From the NCBI RefSeq assembly GCF_003790525.1, contig NZ_CP033633.1: 64,000 bases of DNA; one strand, given 5' to 3'. Below the pieces are notes generated by a model. That model saw nothing but the letters and a program-made list of their open reading frames with translations. It had not been told where the DNA came from and did no database searches. Both the position numbers and the translations under genes were made by a program. Position 1 is the first letter of the stretch; each line of letters opens with the position of its first letter. The stretch comes from Escherichia coli (GTDB lineage: Bacteria; Pseudomonadota; Gammaproteobacteria; Enterobacterales; Enterobacteriaceae). Below, one piece after another: positions 232 through 18,390 of the stretch.

Positions 232-567
232 GGGGATTCCTCCATCGATAAATGGATAAATTTCGGGATGAGGCTGAGTGGAATTAATGCGAACAATCGC
301 CGGTAATGACCGGGCAGGGATGAAATAACCAGGGTATTTTCACAGGAACAGCAGAAGGCAGTGAGAGACAGGCACAAAAAAACGACTGGTGAGGTCGGTT
401 TTTTTGCTATTCCGGGGCGGAGTTGGTGACTCTGACCGAAAGGGAAATCACTCTACATCTAACACCATCATAGTAGGCTGCGCTTCTCTTTTTTGCAATC
501 AGAAAAATGACTATAATCGCTCCGTTAGCTCTGTCTGGTGATGCTTCTGCCCTTTAATAAAATATGC

Positions 568-744: not shown

Positions 745-894
745 TTTTACACCTTTCTGTTATTCTGCTTATTACGGCCAGCAAACAGCAAATATTAAAA
801 ATAACGCGGCGGTAAAAATGGCAATTTTTTCCCATACTGTATTTTTTCCATTTATTTGCTTTGAAATGTTTTTTTGCTTCATATCAGTAAATGA

Positions 895-1386
895 TTATTT
901 TTTATTCTGTTTCCTCCAGGCCCATGGTGGCACCGGATTTTCATCTGCCCATAATCCCCGTTTAAGGGCACGGGCATCGCGCTGGAGAGCCGGGAGAGTA
1001 TAGTCCTTGTTGTAGTCCGGGTATACCCAGGCCGCTCCCTTCCTGATTTGCTCACGATTCGCTTCAGTGCCGTCAGCGGTATAGACTCTGCCGAGAATAC
1101 GGTTATATCTGTCGGTCTGTAAGTATTGTACGGTTACAGGCTTACCGGCCACCAGGTCTTTTAACTGAGAGGCAGACCAGCGTCCAAAGGGCTGTTTCTT
1201 TTCCGGTGCATCAATATTTGCCAGGCGGACCCTGACAGTTTTTTTATCCTGTAATATTTCCAGTGTATCACCATCAAGAACGCGGATAACGTTTCCCTGA
1301 ATCTGTGCAGCGCAGAGGGAACCTGAAAAAATAATAGCGAGAGAGAACATATATTTTATCATTTTATTACATCCTTTTTTATTCAT
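895..1386 (-). CDS. nuc: secreted thermonuclease (staphylococcal-nuclease fold, plasmid Nuc-like)
   Basis: Translation has SNase-like motifs (VLDGDT, RLANIDAPE, DRYNRILGRVY) and a signal-peptide-like N-terminus MIKYMFSLAIIFSGSLCAAQ; true start may be the internal Met at 1362 or 1350. Confidence 0.7.
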   Translation of the reverse strand: MNKKGCNKMIKYMFSLAIIFSGSLCAAQIQGNVIRVLDGDTLEILQDKKTVRVRLANIDAPEKKQPFGRWSASQLKDLVAGKPVTVQYLQTDRYNRILGRVYTADGTEANREQIRKGAAWVYPDYNKDYTLPALQRDARALKRGLWADENPVPPWAWRKQNKK

Positions 1387-1526
1387 GAAAAACAGGCGGC
1401 GTTTATATTACGGAATAATATCGTTAAGTTGAGTTTATGTTTCCGGTAATGTAATGCTTCACGCAGAGCATGAATTCCAGTAGGCTAATATTCATGATGA
1501 TATAGTAACAGATATCCGGTGACAGT

Positions 1527-2150
1527 ATGCAGGAACATATTGATTATCAGATTGAGAAATATCAGTTCAGGGCCAGGAATGAGTCTCCGCGACTGATGCG
1601 CCAGTGGGCAGATGTCATGCGTGAATGCCGTGATACCGGAGCAGGAGCCAGGGAGCGGCTGCGGATTGCCTTACTTAATGTTGATTATGTGACCAGTTTT
1701 GAACTGCCGTTTCGTCTGCTGTTAACCCGGACACCGCAGATGATTGACAGCGTGCGGCGGGAATGGCAGCTCAGCCAGAAAAAAGTCGTATTCAATGAGC
1801 GGCAGCGGGGATGTGTATACAGTCTGCAGAATGACTTATCCGGCGTGCCGGATAGCTTCAGTTACAGTCTTGCGACGCGAATACGGCGGGTGGACAGCTA
1901 TGGCATGACGACGCGTTGTTTCACTGATATAGCCGGGCAGGTTAAAGCCCCGACAGCACGGCTGAAACTGGCGCTGGAAAGCGGGTTAATTGTCACCGCG
2001 CTGGATGGTCTGTTCTGGCTTGGTATTCAGCGTATTGCCGCAGATGTGCAGCGGCTGCGTCAGTCCGGAATGACAATCATCACCCGGGATGTTGAGGTCT
2101 CAGACTCGCTGACCGGAACCACACGGGTTGTTTCCGGGTACAGCCTTTGA
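1527..2150 (+). CDS. hypothetical protein, 207 aa
   Basis: Long ORF with protein-like composition; no family recognised by eye; converges on and overlaps the 3' end of the minus-strand small-gene operon. Confidence 0.4.
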   Translation: MQEHIDYQIEKYQFRARNESPRLMRQWADVMRECRDTGAGARERLRIALLNVDYVTSFELPFRLLLTRTPQMIDSVRREWQLSQKKVVFNERQRGCVYSLQNDLSGVPDSFSYSLATRIRRVDSYGMTTRCFTDIAGQVKAPTARLKLALESGLIVTALDGLFWLGIQRIAADVQRLRQSGMTIITRDVEVSDSLTGTTRVVSGYSL

Positions 2151-2351
2151 TTTATGCAACAAAGTATCGCAGCGTCGAATATGAGCTATGGCCAGATTTT
2201 TGTTAATCGTGGTTGTTGCAACATGTAAGGCGAATGACCACACTATTCCGGTACGCTCGTAATCACGCTGAAATTCTGCTTCCTGTCCTGCCGTGATGAG
2301 TTCCGACCAGGACATACGGCGAAGTGTATGTCTGTCAGTAATATCCGTCAT
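2100..2351 (-). CDS. hypothetical small protein, 83 aa
   Basis: Last gene of a run of four small minus-strand ORFs with 4-bp start/stop overlaps (translational coupling pattern). Confidence 0.25.
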   Translation of the reverse strand: MTDITDRHTLRRMSWSELITAGQEAEFQRDYERTGIVWSFALHVATTTINKNLAIAHIRRCDTLLHKSKAVPGNNPCGSGQRV

Positions 2352-2563
2352 GAGCTCTCAGCCTCCTCCTTCGTATTTCCGTCAGAAACACAAACGCCCC
2401 GCAGAGAAAATTCGCCAACATTCTCCTTTTTAATGGCGCGCAATGCATCGCGGCAGGCCCGTTCGGTATGAAAGGCCTGGCTGTGCACCGCCAGTGTGGG
2501 CTGACGGGCATCACCGGAAGAGACATTAAAGGGCGATGAAAGCCAGAAAATCAGTAGCCACAT
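2348..2563 (-). CDS. hypothetical small protein, 71 aa, hydrophobic N-terminus
   Basis: Coupled ORF in the same small-gene operon; N-terminus MWLLIFWLSSPF looks signal-peptide or TM-like. Confidence 0.3.
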   Translation of the reverse strand: MWLLIFWLSSPFNVSSGDARQPTLAVHSQAFHTERACRDALRAIKKENVGEFSLRGVCVSDGNTKEEAESS

Positions 2564-2566
2564 GCG

Positions 2567-2950
2567 TCACACCTCGTCCTTTTTATGCGGGTATCTGGAC
2601 AGAATATTGAGCGCCTGTAATGGCGCTTCATGCATTTCACGGATACAACGGGCATCGGTGATATTTTCCCGGTAATGTGTGGTTTCCAGCATCATATGAT
2701 GCATATGGAGCATCCGGGCCAGGGCTGCGCGGAGTTCTTCAATATGTTGTTCATGGGAATGCTGGCGGGGCTGTATCCGGCAGAGAGGGATAACCTCCAC
2801 ATCATCCGGGTGCGCGCGAAGCCACGCGTCAGTGACTGCAATGTCGTCAGTGTAAAACCATGTGCCGGATGTCCCGTTGGCCAGAAAACGCATTTTCCAG
2901 GCTTCTGGGGTGGCGGTTGTGTTGTTATCTTTCATGGTGCCACCACTCAT
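2567..2950 (-). CDS. hypothetical protein, 127 aa
   Basis: Protein-like ORF (WFYTDDIAVTDAWLRAHPDDVEVIPL); competing plus-strand ORF 2630..3031 is Cys/His-rich and looks like a shadow frame. Confidence 0.35.
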   Translation of the reverse strand: MSGGTMKDNNTTATPEAWKMRFLANGTSGTWFYTDDIAVTDAWLRAHPDDVEVIPLCRIQPRQHSHEQHIEELRAALARMLHMHHMMLETTHYRENITDARCIREMHEAPLQALNILSRYPHKKDEV

Positions 2951-3138
2951 TCAACAGGCTTAATGCTGTCCAGGCGCAGTCTGCTCAGACTGTCGTGGCT
3001 GCCACAGCGGCGTCCAGTGCTTTTGCTGTAGCACTCCTGCCCCCTGATACACCATGCCGTTGGCGTTTCGTAGAGGCTGACACGTCGGGTTTTATCTTTA
3101 ATGATGAGAAGCCCGGTGTAAGTTTTTGTCTTTTTCAT
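2947..3138 (-). CDS. hypothetical small protein, 63 aa
   Basis: First ORF of the coupled small-gene run (4-bp overlap with next gene). Confidence 0.25.
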   Translation of the reverse strand: MKKTKTYTGLLIIKDKTRRVSLYETPTAWCIRGQECYSKSTGRRCGSHDSLSRLRLDSIKPVE

Positions 3139-3234
3139 CGGTGGGGTACAAACGCAGAAATTTTGTTGTCATTACATCATCAGTTTTAGCCTGCAGAGAC
3201 GCTGAAAAATCAGCGTTTTCAGACCCTGTTCAGG

Positions 3235-3477
3235 TTAGTGAATATTCTTGCCTGGCCTTTCGGCAATATCAATCCCCTGGAGTTGCATGGATATGCCCAT
3301 ACCGTTGACCATGAGGCTGTTTATGGACTGAACACCACATTTCATCATGAGCTCAAAACACAGTGCGCTGAGCATGCCGAGCGCCTCTTCTGAGGACTGG
3401 CAGTGTGTATTCAAAAGAGTATTGAACTGTTTAACGATATCCGGGGTGAGGCACATACTTTGTATTTCGTCTTTCAT
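3235..3477 (-). CDS. small hypothetical protein, paralog A of a duplicated small-gene family
   Basis: ATG at 3477 with AAGGAG about 5 nt upstream; shares motif DIVKQFNTLLNTHCQSSEEALGMLSALCFELM with the ORF at 4011..4193; preceded by a conserved ~420 bp repeat. Confidence 0.45.
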   Translation of the reverse strand: MKDEIQSMCLTPDIVKQFNTLLNTHCQSSEEALGMLSALCFELMMKCGVQSINSLMVNGMGISMQLQGIDIAERPGKNIH

Positions 3478-3615
3478 GACTACTCCTTATTTCAGGCATT
3501 TTGCATTTTGGGTTAATAACACGAAGCCCGTAGACGGAAAACCTGAGGCGTTCGGATGGGATAATTCCCGGGTATTTTCCTGTTCCGGATACAAAAAATA
3601 TAACGGCATGAAAAG

Positions 3616-4035
3616 GATTGTGGCGGACAGGAAAACAATTAGAATAGCTGCGGGCGCTTGAGGCTGTATGCCGAAAGCGTTTTGTGGACGGCATGCAGCA
3701 GAAAGCCCCAGGCGATCTTTTTATCAATCAACCCAGGGCCCACTGTAATGCCTCAACAACATTATAGTAGCCCGATGACGGCCGAAAGGCAATGGAGGGG
3801 CTGCGATGCCACAACGAACGTTTTTAATAATGTTAATCGTCGTCTGTGTGACGATACTGTGTTTTGTCTGGATGGTGAGGGATTCGCTTTGCGGATTTCG
3901 TATCGAGCAGGGAAATACGGTGCTTGTGGCAACGTTAGCCTACGAAGTTAAACGTTAACGGGCAACACGGCGGCAGGACATCTGCCGCCGGATTGTTGCG
4001 AAGGCTGACCTCAATGCGCCTTGTTTGTCTTTTTT
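3616..4035. repeat. direct repeat copy 1 (~420 bp, ~95 percent identical to copy 2), non-coding element upstream of small gene A
   Basis: Aligned by eye against 4336..4755 (offset 720 bp); contains hairpin CGGCGGCAG-GACATC-CTGCCGCCG and a TATAAT on the minus strand; plus-strand ORF 3658..3951 inside it looks non-coding (Cys/Trp-rich). Confidence 0.8.
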
Positions 4036-4193
4036 ACCGGACGATGGATCCCACTCCTCCTCATCAGTTCGTAGCAGAGTGTACTCAGCATGGCAAGTGC
4101 AGCTTCTGATGATTTACAGTGTGTATTCAGGAGGGTAAGAAATTGTTTAAAAACATCAGGGTTTATACTGGTGCTTTGATATTCGTTACTCAT
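4011..4193 (-). CDS. small hypothetical protein, paralog B (about 60 aa from internal ATG of track ORF 4011..4313)
   Basis: ATG at 4193 with AAAGGAAA upstream homologous to the paralog A start region; motif DVFKQFLTLLNTHCKSSEAALAMLSTLCYELM; its stop codon lies at the edge of repeat copy 1. Confidence 0.45.
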   Translation of the reverse strand: MSNEYQSTSINPDVFKQFLTLLNTHCKSSEAALAMLSTLCYELMRRSGIHRPVKKTNKAH

Positions 4194-4335
4194 AGTATTT
4201 CCTTTCAGGTCATTATTACTTCCGGATTTAACATGATGTCTGTAACCATAAAATAATGAACGTGTTCCGGGAGTCATTGCCGTGTAGTTTCCCGTAAAAA
4301 TACTGTTGTGCATTACATGTCATTAGGTGGAAACC

Positions 4336-4755
4336 GATTGTGGCAGACTGAAAATCGATTAGAATAGCGGCGGGCGCTTGAGGCTGTATGCTGAAAGCGT
4401 TTTGTGGACGGCATGCAGCAGAAAGCCCCAGGCGATTTTTTTATCAATCAACCCAGGGCTCTACTGTAATGCATCGACAACATTATAATAGCCCGATGAC
4501 GGCCGAAAGGCAATGGAGGGGCTGCGATGCCACAACGAACGTTTTTAATAATGTTAATCGTCGTCTGTGTGACGATACTGTGTTTTGTCTGGATGGTGAG
4601 GGATTCGCTTTGCGGATTCCGTGTCGAGCAGGGAAACACAGTGCTTGTGGCAACGTTAGCCTACGAAGTTAAACGTTAACGGGCAACACGGCGGCAGGAA
4701 ATCTGCCGCCGGATTGTTGCGAAAGCAAACCTCAATGCGCCCTTTTTTACCTGGA
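4336..4755. repeat. direct repeat copy 2 of the ~420 bp conserved element
   Basis: Near-identical to 3616..4035 with a few substitutions and a 1-bp indel near its end. Confidence 0.8.
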
Positions 4756-4992
4756 TTTCTGCAGCGCGTTTCAGCATAGCATGCAGTTCTGTGCTGATCC
4801 TTGCTTCCAGTCGGGCAGTTTGTGTTGCAGATGGCATGATTTGTACTTCCTGAATATACTGAACGGCAAATTGCCGTATTGTGCTAATTACAGTCTGATA
4901 CAGGGACGGCAGACAGGCATTCTGCCTGAAAAGAAAAAGCCGGTTCAGAGAAAACCGGCTGACGGATTATCGTCTAACAGTTGATAGCTACC

Positions 4993-16352: not shown

Positions 16353-17062
16353 CGTAATGTACCGGCAGAGGTGATGACTGAGCGGCTGGACGGTTCAATC
16401 CGGGTGATGGTGATATTCCCCAGCCTGTCACCTTCCCGTACTGCCCAGGCGCTACCCTGCCAGCGGATCCAGGCCATTCCTTTTTCCACCGACATGATTT
16501 GCATGCCCTGCAGGCGGGAAGGCGGGGTTTTCGTTGACTGGCCGTTATTCCCGGTCGGGATTTGCAGTGGTCCCTGCATCTGCAGGGCATGCACCTGCTT
16601 ACGGGTTTCATCAAGCAACTGACGGGTTTCCTGTGCCCAGGCCTCATCTTTCCGTATGGTGTCGCCAAGGGTTGTGATGCTCTCTTTCAGCATGGTCAGG
16701 GTACGTCGGATTTCCTCATCCCGCCTGTCCAGCTCTGCTTTCAGGTCACGGGCAAGCTGCTGCATGTCTGCCTGTGGGGTGACAGGAGGCGCGGACATGG
16801 TGTTTCCGCTCCCGGTCTCCGTCATGGGCATGGGCTCTGCCCAGCTTTCAGCAGCGGGCGGTGTGACCGCGAAGCCTGCATCTGCAGGGGGCTCTGAGGG
16901 TGTCCGCAGAAACTTGTACCAGACTGCGGCCAGGATGATGAGGACACAGCCGGCCCAGACTGGCAGGCTGTATCCCATATACTGGCGTTTCAGGAAGGAT
17001 TTGCCGGATGCCGGTGTCGTTGTTTCGCCAAAACTGCCGGGATCTTCATGTTCGTTTTTCAT
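16349..17062 (-). CDS. traP: conjugal transfer protein (TraP by position, DotF/IcmG-like)
   Basis: 237 aa, single TM plus coiled-coil-like region; coupled to traO and traQ. Confidence 0.5.
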   Translation of the reverse strand: MKNEHEDPGSFGETTTPASGKSFLKRQYMGYSLPVWAGCVLIILAAVWYKFLRTPSEPPADAGFAVTPPAAESWAEPMPMTETGSGNTMSAPPVTPQADMQQLARDLKAELDRRDEEIRRTLTMLKESITTLGDTIRKDEAWAQETRQLLDETRKQVHALQMQGPLQIPTGNNGQSTKTPPSRLQGMQIMSVEKGMAWIRWQGSAWAVREGDRLGNITITRIEPSSRSVITSAGTLR

Positions 17063-18390
17063 GGATGACTTTCCTGTTGTATTCCGTAACGTTGCCGCAT
17101 TTCGTTCTGTTTACGCATGACAGCTGCCTGGATCCTGTCAGACGCCTGACGCTCTGCTTCTTCCTGGGTGAGCGGGCGTCCGGAGGGCGGTGGCACAGAA
17201 GGGGCAGTGCCGGAGGAGGGGGGACTGATATCGTTGCTCATGACCGGCTCAACAAACAGAATGGAGACAACCTCTCCGCGTGACACTGTCACCTGCCGGT
17301 AAGGTTCGCTCTCCGCCTGGCGGGTCAGCAACTGACTGCCCCGTTCGGCCATGCCGCCTGCAATGACGCCAGCCAGCGCCTCGCCATCAGGCATTCCCAC
17401 CCTGCCGGTAATGCTGCCGTAGTTTCCCTGAATGACCTGTGTGTTGGCGTCTTTGTAAAGACTTCCGACACTGCCCACCCCACCGAGCACGGACGGCAGA
17501 ACGATATGCTTAAACCAGCGGTGGTTCACGTCGCTGGCCACGGATGACATGCCGGTATGTTCATTCAGGGCATATGCATTGACTTTCAGAAACATGCCCC
17601 GCCACATCATCCGGTCAAAGTGGATATCCATTCCCTTGCCGGCGAGTCTGGCGTCCTGGCTGTAGAGGACGGCCCCGGCCCATGGGCCGGCAGGTACGGA
17701 GGCCACCACGCGGGAGACAGCATTGTCAGAGTCCACTTCCGTATCAATGAAGGCAGGTACGCGGGTCAGTGCCGGTATCAGCTGTATCCCTGTACGAGCT
17801 GCCGGGGTTGCCAGACTGGCCTCCTGCAGACGTGGTTGTGGTGATGTGCCGGTACCGGGTGGTGAGGCATGTGAGCTTATCCCGGGAGCACCAGTGGTAC
17901 CCCACATTGCAGCCGCCACTACCGGGGGGCGAGCGTCAGGATGCTGTGTGTTGATGCGGGCAAGCAGTTTTTGTAACGCTTCCCGCTGTTTTTCCCGGTC
18001 TGTTTGATCTGCCTGAGGGGGCGTTGATGGTTGACCAGAACCCTCTGCCTGGTCAGCAGGCTGAGTATCCCTTCTTTGATTATTTCCGTGATCAGTATCC
18101 AGTCCCCTGGGCAGACTGGCGATGAATGTCTGGTTATTACGTAATGCTTCTGCGGCCCCGCGCTCATTGTCAGCACGCAGTAAATCCCGGTAGTGCTGTG
18201 ACTCCACCACGGTCCTCCCGCTGCCTGTTGTCGTGCTGTTGATATTGACTGACGAGAGCGATGCGCTGTTTTCGGGGGAAAGCCAGGTGAGCAGCAGGTA
18301 TCCGCCCCCGATGATAATCACGCCCCCGAGAACCAGCAGGGCTGACAGTTTTTTGCCGGACTTTGCGGCTGTGTCCTGTTCTGTGCTCAT
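17059..18390 (-). CDS. traO: conjugal transfer protein TraO (DotG/IcmE-like)
   Basis: 443 aa, N-terminal TM, Pro/Gln-rich linker, conserved C-terminal domain; size and position match R64 TraO. Confidence 0.6.
   Translation of the reverse strand: MSTEQDTAAKSGKKLSALLVLGGVIIIGGGYLLLTWLSPENSASLSSVNINSTTTGSGRTVVESQHYRDLLRADNERGAAEALRNNQTFIASLPRGLDTDHGNNQRRDTQPADQAEGSGQPSTPPQADQTDREKQREALQKLLARINTQHPDARPPVVAAAMWGTTGAPGISSHASPPGTGTSPQPRLQEASLATPAARTGIQLIPALTRVPAFIDTEVDSDNAVSRVVASVPAGPWAGAVLYSQDARLAGKGMDIHFDRMMWRGMFLKVNAYALNEHTGMSSVASDVNHRWFKHIVLPSVLGGVGSVGSLYKDANTQVIQGNYGSITGRVGMPDGEALAGVIAGGMAERGSQLLTRQAESEPYRQVTVSRGEVVSILFVEPVMSNDISPPSSGTAPSVPPPSGRPLTQEEAERQASDRIQAAVMRKQNEMRQRYGIQQESHP

Follow-up and report, generated by a model that had tools for sequence, protein, structure and literature searches.

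The ANR (AraC negative regulator) family comprises small bacterial regulators, with Aar of enteroaggregative Escherichia coli, Cnr of enterotoxigenic E. coli and Rnr of Citrobacter rodentium as described members (Santiago et al. 2014, 2016, 2017). ANR proteins are helical, have a mass of ~9 kDa (<10 kDa; Santiago 2016), bind AraC/XylS-type activators as well as H-NS and damp their regulons, and are potent off-switches of virulence regulons in diarrhoeagenic bacteria. Their genes have been discussed beside AraC partners on virulence plasmids, in genomic islands and in a phage-inducible island (ANR and phage-inducible chromosomal island papers). The family signature consists of A10, E14, A22, W26, A29, W43 and R47 together with a conserved C-terminal Cys (PMC4983702, PMC4038620), and W45 of Aar, which occupies the W43 position in helix 3, is required for activity. 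The border between the PerC and ANR families was called blurred in a 2025 paper (PMC11773190). Here we analyse a stretch of 64,000 nucleotides of E. coli DNA (assembly GCF_003790525.1, contig NZ_CP033633.1; hereafter the window), an I-complex (IncK2/Z) conjugative plasmid whose annotated sister plasmid p135-1 is typed IncK2/Z, MOBP and MPF_I. Next to a nuclease gene, nuc, it carries an operon of four small genes, the last of which encodes an 83-aa protein that we place as a diverged sister branch of the ANR family.

Enzymes of the staphylococcal nuclease (SNase) type require Ca2+, and the ParB nuclease of RK2/RP4 is an SNase-like, Ca2+-dependent enzyme encoded by a plasmid. On the IncK plasmid pCT, the gene pCT_057, a "putative parB-like nuclease", was knocked out by Cottell et al. 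2014 (PMC4083329); its loss did not reduce plasmid stability, but the mutant plasmid lost in competition with wild-type pCT. The classical nuc of IncI1 plasmids (R64, ColIb-P9, pESBL) encodes an EDTA-resistant nuclease; its place is between traK and sogL, and R64 and pESBL can transfer without it (PMC4288162). A preliminary description of the window had treated its nuclease gene and the four small genes as one item, a secreted nuclease beside a translationally coupled operon; the present analysis partly confirms the observations in that description and partly supports its interpretation.

The last of the four small genes encodes a relative of the ANR family

The four small open reading frames (ORFs), all of them present in the ORF list of the window where the preliminary description had placed them, are as follows.

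2947–3138, minus strand: ORF of 63 aa, first of the four; phage small-protein family
2567–2950, minus strand: ORF of 127 aa (122 aa from the ATG at 2935); E. coli orphan
2348–2563, minus strand: ORF of 71 aa; lambdoid nin-region family
2100–2351, minus strand: ORF of 83 aa, last of the four; ANR-like

The NCBIfam model NF033650 (ANR family transcriptional regulator) is the only family hit of the 83-aa protein. It is also the top hit for all seven aligned close relatives, and the sole hit in six of them, with scores of 21.7–30.7 bits and a best E of 1.6e-7. A HMMER profile built from the alignment found 33 proteins among 1.84 billion representative proteins, and NF033650 is again the top hit in each of the ten more distant finds that were scanned. 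Two profile finds, P0047 (profile E 5e-19; NF033650 41.1 bits) and P0054 (4.6e-9; 34.9 bits), pass the curated cut-off of the model, and P0047 shares 41% identity with the 83-aa protein across 58 residues (E 6e-17).

The 83-aa protein shares the small size of ANR proteins, with a mass of ~9 kDa, relatives of 69–90 aa and a conserved core of 61 residues (1–61) that ends at an invariant Cys. When the signature residues were placed by reading the alignment by eye, the clade invariants E26, W38, A41 and C61 matched the ANR Glu, first Trp, Ala29 and Cys, respectively; at the positions of A10 and A22 the clade consensus is Ala, and the window protein has Gly and Thr. No match to Pfam PerC was found for the 83-aa protein at E up to 1, a search of the Protein Data Bank (PDB) with the ANR-like profile returned nothing meaningful, and tblastn of the ANR-like protein against phages gave no match. 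Taken together, homology of the 83-aa protein to the ANR family is well supported, strict membership is not, and the protein is best described as a diverged sister branch that may have an ANR-like activity.

The C-terminal tail of the protein differs among copies, and in the window it runs antisense into the 3' end of a 207-aa gene. The NCBI Prokaryotic Genome Annotation Pipeline (PGAP) leaves the 83-aa gene uncalled in the plasmid annotation examined and calls chromosomal versions of 90 and 69 aa. Homologues carry the public names "hypothetical" or, spuriously, "neurotensin receptor R8".

As a separate observation, the gene for P0047 (comparison locus L007, 5001–5234) is set in a run of conjugation genes (TraG_N, TraU, TraC_F_IV) that belong to a different element, and because of this position ANR-type genes may be common cargo in transfer regions.

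The four small ORFs are genes under purifying selection

A copy of the module with 72% DNA identity occurs in plasmids and chromosomes of E. coli that produce Shiga toxin (STEC) and holds all four ORFs in the same order. Nei–Gojobori counts between the window and this copy gave synonymous divergence (dS) >1 for every ORF and the following ratios of nonsynonymous to synonymous divergence (dN/dS).

63-aa ORF: dN/dS 0.11
122-aa ORF: dN/dS 0.15
71-aa ORF: dN/dS 0.09
83-aa ORF: dN/dS 0.16

Because ratios of 0.09–0.16 at such divergence go together with the same gene order in the 72%-identical copies, the four ORFs are real genes under purifying selection, in agreement with the preliminary description.

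The description had further linked the ORFs by 4-bp overlaps and taken these as a sign of coupled translation, which holds for part of the operon. The ATGA overlap at the 71/83 junction is the only certain one. The 127/71 junction has a 3-nt gap (TGAcgcATG), and the 63/127 junction overlaps as ATGA only with the ATG at 2950, the ATG at 2935 giving a product of 122 aa and a gap of 11 nt. The 2935 start is chosen both by PGAP and by the gene caller on sister plasmids, and the upstream ATG has no equivalent in the diverged copy; a product of 122 aa is therefore the probable one for the second gene. Since the corresponding gaps in the diverged copy are 10, 9 and 33 nt, the tight packing is conserved but the 4-bp overlaps are not, and as evidence of coupling the overlaps speak for one junction, or two at most.

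A strong Shine–Dalgarno sequence, GACGAGGTG, stands before the 71-aa gene and another, GAAGGAGGAGG, before the 83-aa gene; none is seen upstream of the 63-aa gene in the minus-strand reading. An extended -10-like element, TGATGTAAT, was noted by eye ~45 nt upstream of the 63-aa gene, and a hairpin without a U-tract is located at ~3199–3220. Immediately upstream of the module lies a further gene on the same strand.

3235–3477, minus strand: hypothetical gene of 80 aa

This gene is kept in all layouts of the locus and in the chromosomal island, where it is contiguous with the module (window 1900–3635 matches comparison loci L004 and L019), and it may be co-transcribed with the module.

Proteins encoded by the first three genes

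The preliminary description had recognised none of the small proteins. Besides the ANR/Aar-like (NF033650) 83-aa protein, two of the other three belong to PHROG families of lambdoid phages. The 63-aa protein matches phrog_7520 (E 8e-16) and phrog_1226 (3e-15), and also PHROGs 5148 and 4183, with 41–52% identity to proteins in 97 temperate phage records (Stx2a, Yersinia and Klebsiella phages). The 71-aa protein matches phrog_3766 (E 2.5e-11), and tblastn located small unannotated ORFs for it in two Klebsiella phages, the one examined lying between the replication genes and Q; it belongs to a small-protein family of the lambdoid-phage nin region. Its hydrophobic N-terminus and two Cys residues are conserved, which suggests that it is exported or membrane-anchored.

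By comparison, the 122-aa protein has 45 homologues, and all of those with a source name are from E. coli. The 122/127-aa protein has no match in Pfam, PHROG, NCBIfam, PADLOC, the PDB or, by tblastn, phages, and its AlphaFold2 model, built on a 5-sequence alignment, was unusable (mean predicted local distance difference test, pLDDT, 48.8). PDB sequence searches with the 127-, 71- and 63-aa proteins also gave nothing meaningful. On the opposite strand, an antisense ORF of 133 aa (2630–3031, plus strand) overlaps the 127-aa ORF.

A toxin–antitoxin reading of the operon was dropped, having no supporting hit. In the PADLOC scan the nuclease alone gave a match, to a candidate model with an SNase domain, and the small proteins gave none, so that a defence-system reading finds no support there. 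A search of phage DNA with the locus gave no match.

The nuc–ECs1377 pair is a separate unit

The genes on the other side of the 83-aa gene form a divergent pair.

895–1386, minus strand: nuc, staphylococcal-nuclease-family (thermonuclease) gene, putatively exported; Pfam SNase and PDB matches
1387–1526: divergent intergenic region of 140 bp between the starts of nuc and the 207-aa gene
1527–2150, plus strand: ECs1377-family gene of 207 aa; NCBIfam NF052300

The product of nuc, which PGAP starts at 1362 to give 155 aa, matches Pfam SNase (PF00565) with 81.2 bits against a gathering score of 21 (E 9.3e-23) over profile positions 1–107 of 107, and a thermonuclease in the PDB with E 1.8e-10. In an alignment with a hand-entered SNase reference sequence, the equivalents of D21, R35, D40, E43 and R87 are identical and T41 is replaced by Ala. 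These matches and the intact catalytic residues bear out the earlier assignment of nuc to the SNase fold. The N-terminus, MIKYMFSLAIIFSGSLCAA/QIQ, contains a hydrophobic leader that by inspection reads as a Sec signal with an AxA-like site, so the enzyme is putatively exported.

The published knock-out and check primers of pCT_057 map to window positions 793–812 (exact) and 993–1023 (two mismatches). Because the knock-out primers land in it, nuc is the same gene as pCT_057; the preliminary description had called the roles of plasmid-borne periplasmic nucleases unclear, and this gene is not an unexplored one, its homologue on pCT having been knocked out in 2014 (PMC4083329). An identity with the classical IncI1 nuc was considered and rejected, as the two genes occupy different loci: in sister plasmid p135-1 (comparison locus L012), which is 96–99% identical to the window by blastn across the transfer region, the classical position between the sog-like gene and traK is empty, leaving a 64-bp gap (~17049–17113), and the single SNase gene of the window is near trbA. 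Since SNase-type enzymes require Ca2+ and the classical enzyme is EDTA-resistant, the two nucleases probably belong to different enzyme classes. Among the transfer genes of p135-1, the only nuclease appears to be the one encoded by the SNase-type gene near trbA. Around nuc, the window holds trbA, small ORFs and the ECs1377 gene, and no resolvase or parC-like neighbour of the kind found in the multimer-resolution/stability operon parCBA of RK2/RP4.

The 207-aa protein matches NF052300 with 301 bits against a cut-off of 190 (profile positions 2–190 of 190) and Pfam HTH_39 with 26.5 bits, and has 712 homologues across Enterobacterales at 63–68% identity. In the AlphaFold2 model, residues 120–207 have a pLDDT of ~80–93 and the N-terminal half is below 50; the protein combines a conserved N-terminal domain of unassigned fold with a C-terminal winged helix-turn-helix that is modelled confidently. 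Foldseek against the PDB with this model returned generic winged helices only (best E 0.23), and a PDB sequence search with the protein returned nothing meaningful. The most conserved stretch of the family, LLNVDYVTSFELPFRLLLTR (residues 45–75), is invariant in 40 sequences yet has the lowest AlphaFold2 confidence (pLDDT 30–35); this stretch may mediate an interaction, or may have a fold that the shallow alignment failed to resolve.

ECs1377-related DNA was found in half of the E. coli genomes, and both there and in other genera the family's genes occur away from the module and from nuc; no consistent neighbour was seen in the loci compared. A 183-aa gene divergent from the Citrobacter ECs1377 homologue was tested as a nuclease and is not one, and a 214-aa protein adjoining PerC near the diverged module (L005) was tested as an ECs1377 homologue and is not one. 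Across I-complex plasmids, nuc and the 207-aa gene are co-conserved at 78–95% identity. Both promoters presumably lie inside 1387–1526; sigma-70-like matches on both strands at 1497–1547 are weak and not above shuffle expectation.

As described earlier, the 207-aa gene converges on the small ORFs, with a 3' overlap of 51 bp with the 83-aa ORF. Because this plus-strand gene separates them, the operon, which the description had placed upstream of nuc, is not upstream of it in any transcriptional sense.

Several small features lie downstream of nuc. A 36-aa hydrophobic peptide ORF (772–882) and a 58-aa ORF (568–744; phrog_8110, E 2e-18) are on the same minus strand, and the stretch 544–898 is missing where plasmids carry a gene for a serine protease autotransporter of Enterobacteriaceae (SPATE) or the diverged module at that spot. 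At 374–462 (minus strand), an Rfam match to AgrB, an antisense RNA of dinQ-type toxins, scores 41.6 bits against a gathering score of 40, and a DinQ-like type I toxin, dqlB, is annotated between trbA and nuc in sister plasmids; together, the AgrB match and this annotation indicate that the region is probably a second type I toxin–antitoxin locus.

Distribution and rearrangements of the locus

The 2.5 kb around the operon match 496 PLSDB plasmids, 480 of which are predicted to be conjugative, and the best matches are 99.9% identical. The locus occupies a variable slot with trbA on one side and a pnd (hok/sok)–excA–traY block on the other. This slot holds two independent units, the nuc–ECs1377 pair and the four-gene operon: the pair also occurs without the operon in sister plasmids, and the operon without nuc in chromosomes, so that nuclease and operon, once treated as one item, are separable.

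2149–3236: stretch absent from sister plasmids (module and flanks); blastn breakpoints at window 2148 and 3237 against L002 and L003

These sister plasmids match the window only at 544/899–2148 and 3237–4000, and between the two matches they hold genes for a DUF2569 protein and a lipid A phosphoethanolamine transferase. In plasmids with both cassettes (L022–L025), the order is the 80-aa gene, the 63-, 122- and 71-aa genes, the ANR-like gene (74 aa), the convergent transferase, DUF2569, ECs1377 and nuc. Because the DUF2569–phosphoethanolamine-transferase pair stands between the ANR-like gene and ECs1377 in these plasmids, the window layout is a deletion of that pair, which fused the tail of the ANR-like gene to the 3' end of the ECs1377 gene.

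The module is present on ~490 plasmids and, in a search of 5,426 genomes, at 934 chromosomal sites, which include the sat–iha island of uropathogenic E. coli (UPEC), seen in ABU 83972. The chromosomal copies show exactly the junction that is fused in the window, and of the ECs1377 gene they retain no more than the final 250 bp, cut by IS remnants. This shared junction and remnant suggest that they were probably derived from a plasmid of the window type. In STEC I-complex plasmids (L018, L020, L021), the diverged module flanks nuc on its opposite side, and epeA may or may not stand in between. Since each unit also occurs without the other, an insertion hot spot is the simplest explanation for the repeated adjacency of the module and the nuc–ECs1377 pair.

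AraC- and PerC-family genes on the same plasmid

The AraC/XylS regulator that accompanies ANR proteins in the same genome has a counterpart at the far end of the window.

61964–62764, plus strand: YdeO/GadX-like AraC-family regulator, ORF of 266 aa; NCBIfam YdeO 205.6 bits, GadX 94 bits
61665–61946, minus strand: PerC-family small regulator of 93 aa, divergent from the AraC gene; PGAP name in an identical plasmid

The 93-aa protein has a weak match to NF033650 (21.9 bits). The divergent pair (61665–62764) is flanked by IS elements. The plasmid AraC protein is 46% identical (tblastn E 9e-72) to an AraC regulator of E. coli O91 RM7190 (L005), which lies 6 kb from the diverged module, with genes for a SPATE autotransporter and a PerC-family protein nearby. 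We regard the plasmid AraC regulator as a candidate, not a fixed, partner of the 83-aa protein.

Other observations in the window

The hok/sok (pnd) unit is tandemly duplicated (3235–3958 and 4011–4679; Rfam sok at 3652–3808 and 4372–4529), and each copy is preceded by one of two paralogous small minus-strand genes (80 aa, 3235–3477; 100 aa, 4011–4313); one STEC sister plasmid (L020) has three copies. At 4676–4837 (minus strand), a 53-aa ORF has a borderline match to a TacA1-like antitoxin N-terminus (20.7 bits against a cut-off of 21) and is named 'antitoxin' in one sister plasmid; no adjoining toxin gene was noticed. Between excA and hok, sister plasmids (L022–L025, 2678–4264) encode a protein of 528 aa that has a Sigma70_r4 and a TnsA-like N domain and is absent from the window; it probably corresponds to the 'unusual putative sigma factor pCT_066' described in the pCT study. 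At 59634–60197 (plus strand), a 187-aa pentapeptide-repeat protein, a distant relative of Qnr (51.7 bits against a cut-off of 240) that may protect DNA gyrase, adjoins an IS91-family transposase.

Discussion

The region is mostly an ordinary accessory stretch of a well-known plasmid group, to which the nuclease and the 207-aa gene add little new. What is new is confined to the operon's final gene, an ANR-like gene that is unrecognised and wrongly annotated although widespread on plasmids and in pathogenicity islands; "unrecognised" is meant apart from the SF1 ANR subgroup of Santiago 2014 (extraintestinal pathogenic E. coli F11, enterohaemorrhagic E. coli 12009 and others), which is given by GI numbers only and stood outside our comparison.

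Our explanation of the locus as a whole, to which we assign an even chance of being right, is that two independent units share the slot, the nuc–ECs1377 pair and an accessory operon whose final gene encodes a diverged ANR/Aar-group member. The first unit would consist of a Sec-exported, Ca2+-type SNase homologue and a divergent winged-helix protein of the ECs1377 family; the nuclease probably cuts DNA outside the cytoplasm, and probably is a minor fitness factor, not a part of the transfer machine. The second unit would be a tightly packed operon for proteins of 63, 122, 71 and 83 aa, with the 83-aa gene as the last and the best-translated one. The 83-aa protein would act in the ANR manner, binding AraC/XylS-type activators and H-NS and damping their regulons, with YdeO/GadX-like regulators of the host or the plasmid, such as the one at 61964–62764, as likely targets. 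Of the remaining three proteins, two are of types found in phage nin regions, of which one probably is exported or anchored in a membrane, and the third is an E. coli orphan.

A number of points weigh against this explanation. The window protein itself scores only 16.1–16.8 bits against NF033650, whose curated cut-off is 32, and no canonical ANR protein (Aar, Rnr) was identified among the ten scanned of the 33 profile hits. At the equivalent of W43 the whole clade has an invariant Leu, and at that of R47 it has His or Lys; for the 83-aa protein the three-helix ANR fold is putative. The promoter and terminator scan gave nothing above shuffle expectation, so no promoter was identified for the operon, and co-transcription and joint action of its four genes are suppositions. 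Export of the nuclease is putative, being read from the leader by inspection. In addition, ~124 plasmids carry the AraC/PerC pair and ~490 carry the module, so that no fixed partner is evident.

Some of these points would fit a different reading, in which the four genes are unrelated passengers from phages and islands and the 83-aa protein resembles ANR only through a common helical scaffold, as PerC does, and not through anti-activator activity. Homologues of two of the four genes are scattered singly in phage nin regions, the other three genes do not adjoin the ANR relatives P0045 and P0047, the 83-aa protein lacks the Trp of helix 3 on which Aar depends, and the score under the curated cut-off points the same way. 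However, the order and the tight spacing are kept in two lineages with saturated synonymous sites, which would hardly be expected unless the unit were under selection, and relatives found by the profile do pass the ANR cut-off; we consider this reading rather unlikely, while taking it seriously. A further reading ties the operon functionally to the nuc–ECs1377 pair; its products might, for example, regulate or inhibit the nuclease or help in its export. Some version of the module adjoins the pair in three layouts (convergent on ECs1377, downstream of nuc, and beyond the DUF2569–transferase pair), and the island copies retain an ECs1377 remnant. Such a tie is nevertheless very unlikely: the pair occurs without the module, the module is found in chromosomes without nuc, ECs1377 genes stand apart from both module and nuc in half of the E. 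coli genomes and in other genera, all plasmid layouts lie in one insertion hot spot, which is enough to explain the adjacency, and an exported nuclease requires no cytoplasmic immunity protein.

The preliminary description had itself named a reading by which its small ORFs would fall, namely that they are shadow frames of one larger, frameshifted gene, to which chance ORFs may be added. The 133-aa antisense ORF overlapping the 127-aa ORF and the failure of PGAP to call the 83-aa ORF in the plasmid annotation examined might be taken in this sense. Purifying selection is strong in all four frames (dN/dS 0.09–0.16), copies that are only 72% identical preserve where each frame starts and stops, each ORF has homologues of its own, and a homologue of the 83-aa ORF is annotated in chromosomes, which leaves this reading with hardly any probability and excludes it in the frameshift form.

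If the explanation by two units is extended, the operon might be a plasmid-borne device that on arrival retunes the AraC-family regulators of the host (YdeO/GadX acid resistance, virulence) and H-NS regulons, with the three other small proteins as partners or effectors. Such a device would be present on hundreds of I-complex plasmids, would have been copied into pathogenicity islands of UPEC and STEC, in some cases to a place directly downstream of SPATE genes, and would have been overlooked through the missed gene call and the 'neurotensin receptor R8' label. This extension is doubtful at present. What the analysis does indicate is that a diverged ANR branch travels on common IncK/B/O/Z resistance plasmids and in the UPEC sat–iha island and that its misleading public annotation can be corrected; if the 83-aa protein is active, such plasmids could change acid-resistance or virulence programmes of their hosts.

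Comparison with known systems places the two units as follows. The window nuc differs from pCT_057 only by allelic changes, and the 'ParB' label of that gene denotes an SNase-like type of nuclease, not a partition protein. With staphylococcal nuclease and RK2/RP4 ParB, the nuc product shares the SNase fold and the catalytic Asp, Arg and Glu residues, and it is plasmid-borne like ParB; it differs by the change of Thr41 to Ala and by the putative N-terminal export leader. With the classical IncI1 Nuc it has in common that it is a non-essential nuclease encoded among I-type transfer genes. Members of the ECs1377 family, DNA-binding proteins carried by islands, have an SNase gene as partner only in I-complex plasmids. 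PerC/Pch proteins are, like the 83-aa protein, small and helical with a similar A..W..A...C pattern; unlike ANR proteins, they are described as activators, not anti-activators. As in the ANR family, the gene of the 83-aa protein resides on mobile virulence or plasmid DNA, in genomes with YdeO/GadX-like AraC regulators. By comparison, the 83-aa clade differs by the replacement of the helix-3 Trp with Leu and of the Arg with His and by a loop between helices 2 and 3 that is two residues shorter, and whereas ANR genes are lone genes divergent from their AraC partner, the 83-aa gene is the last of a four-gene operon.

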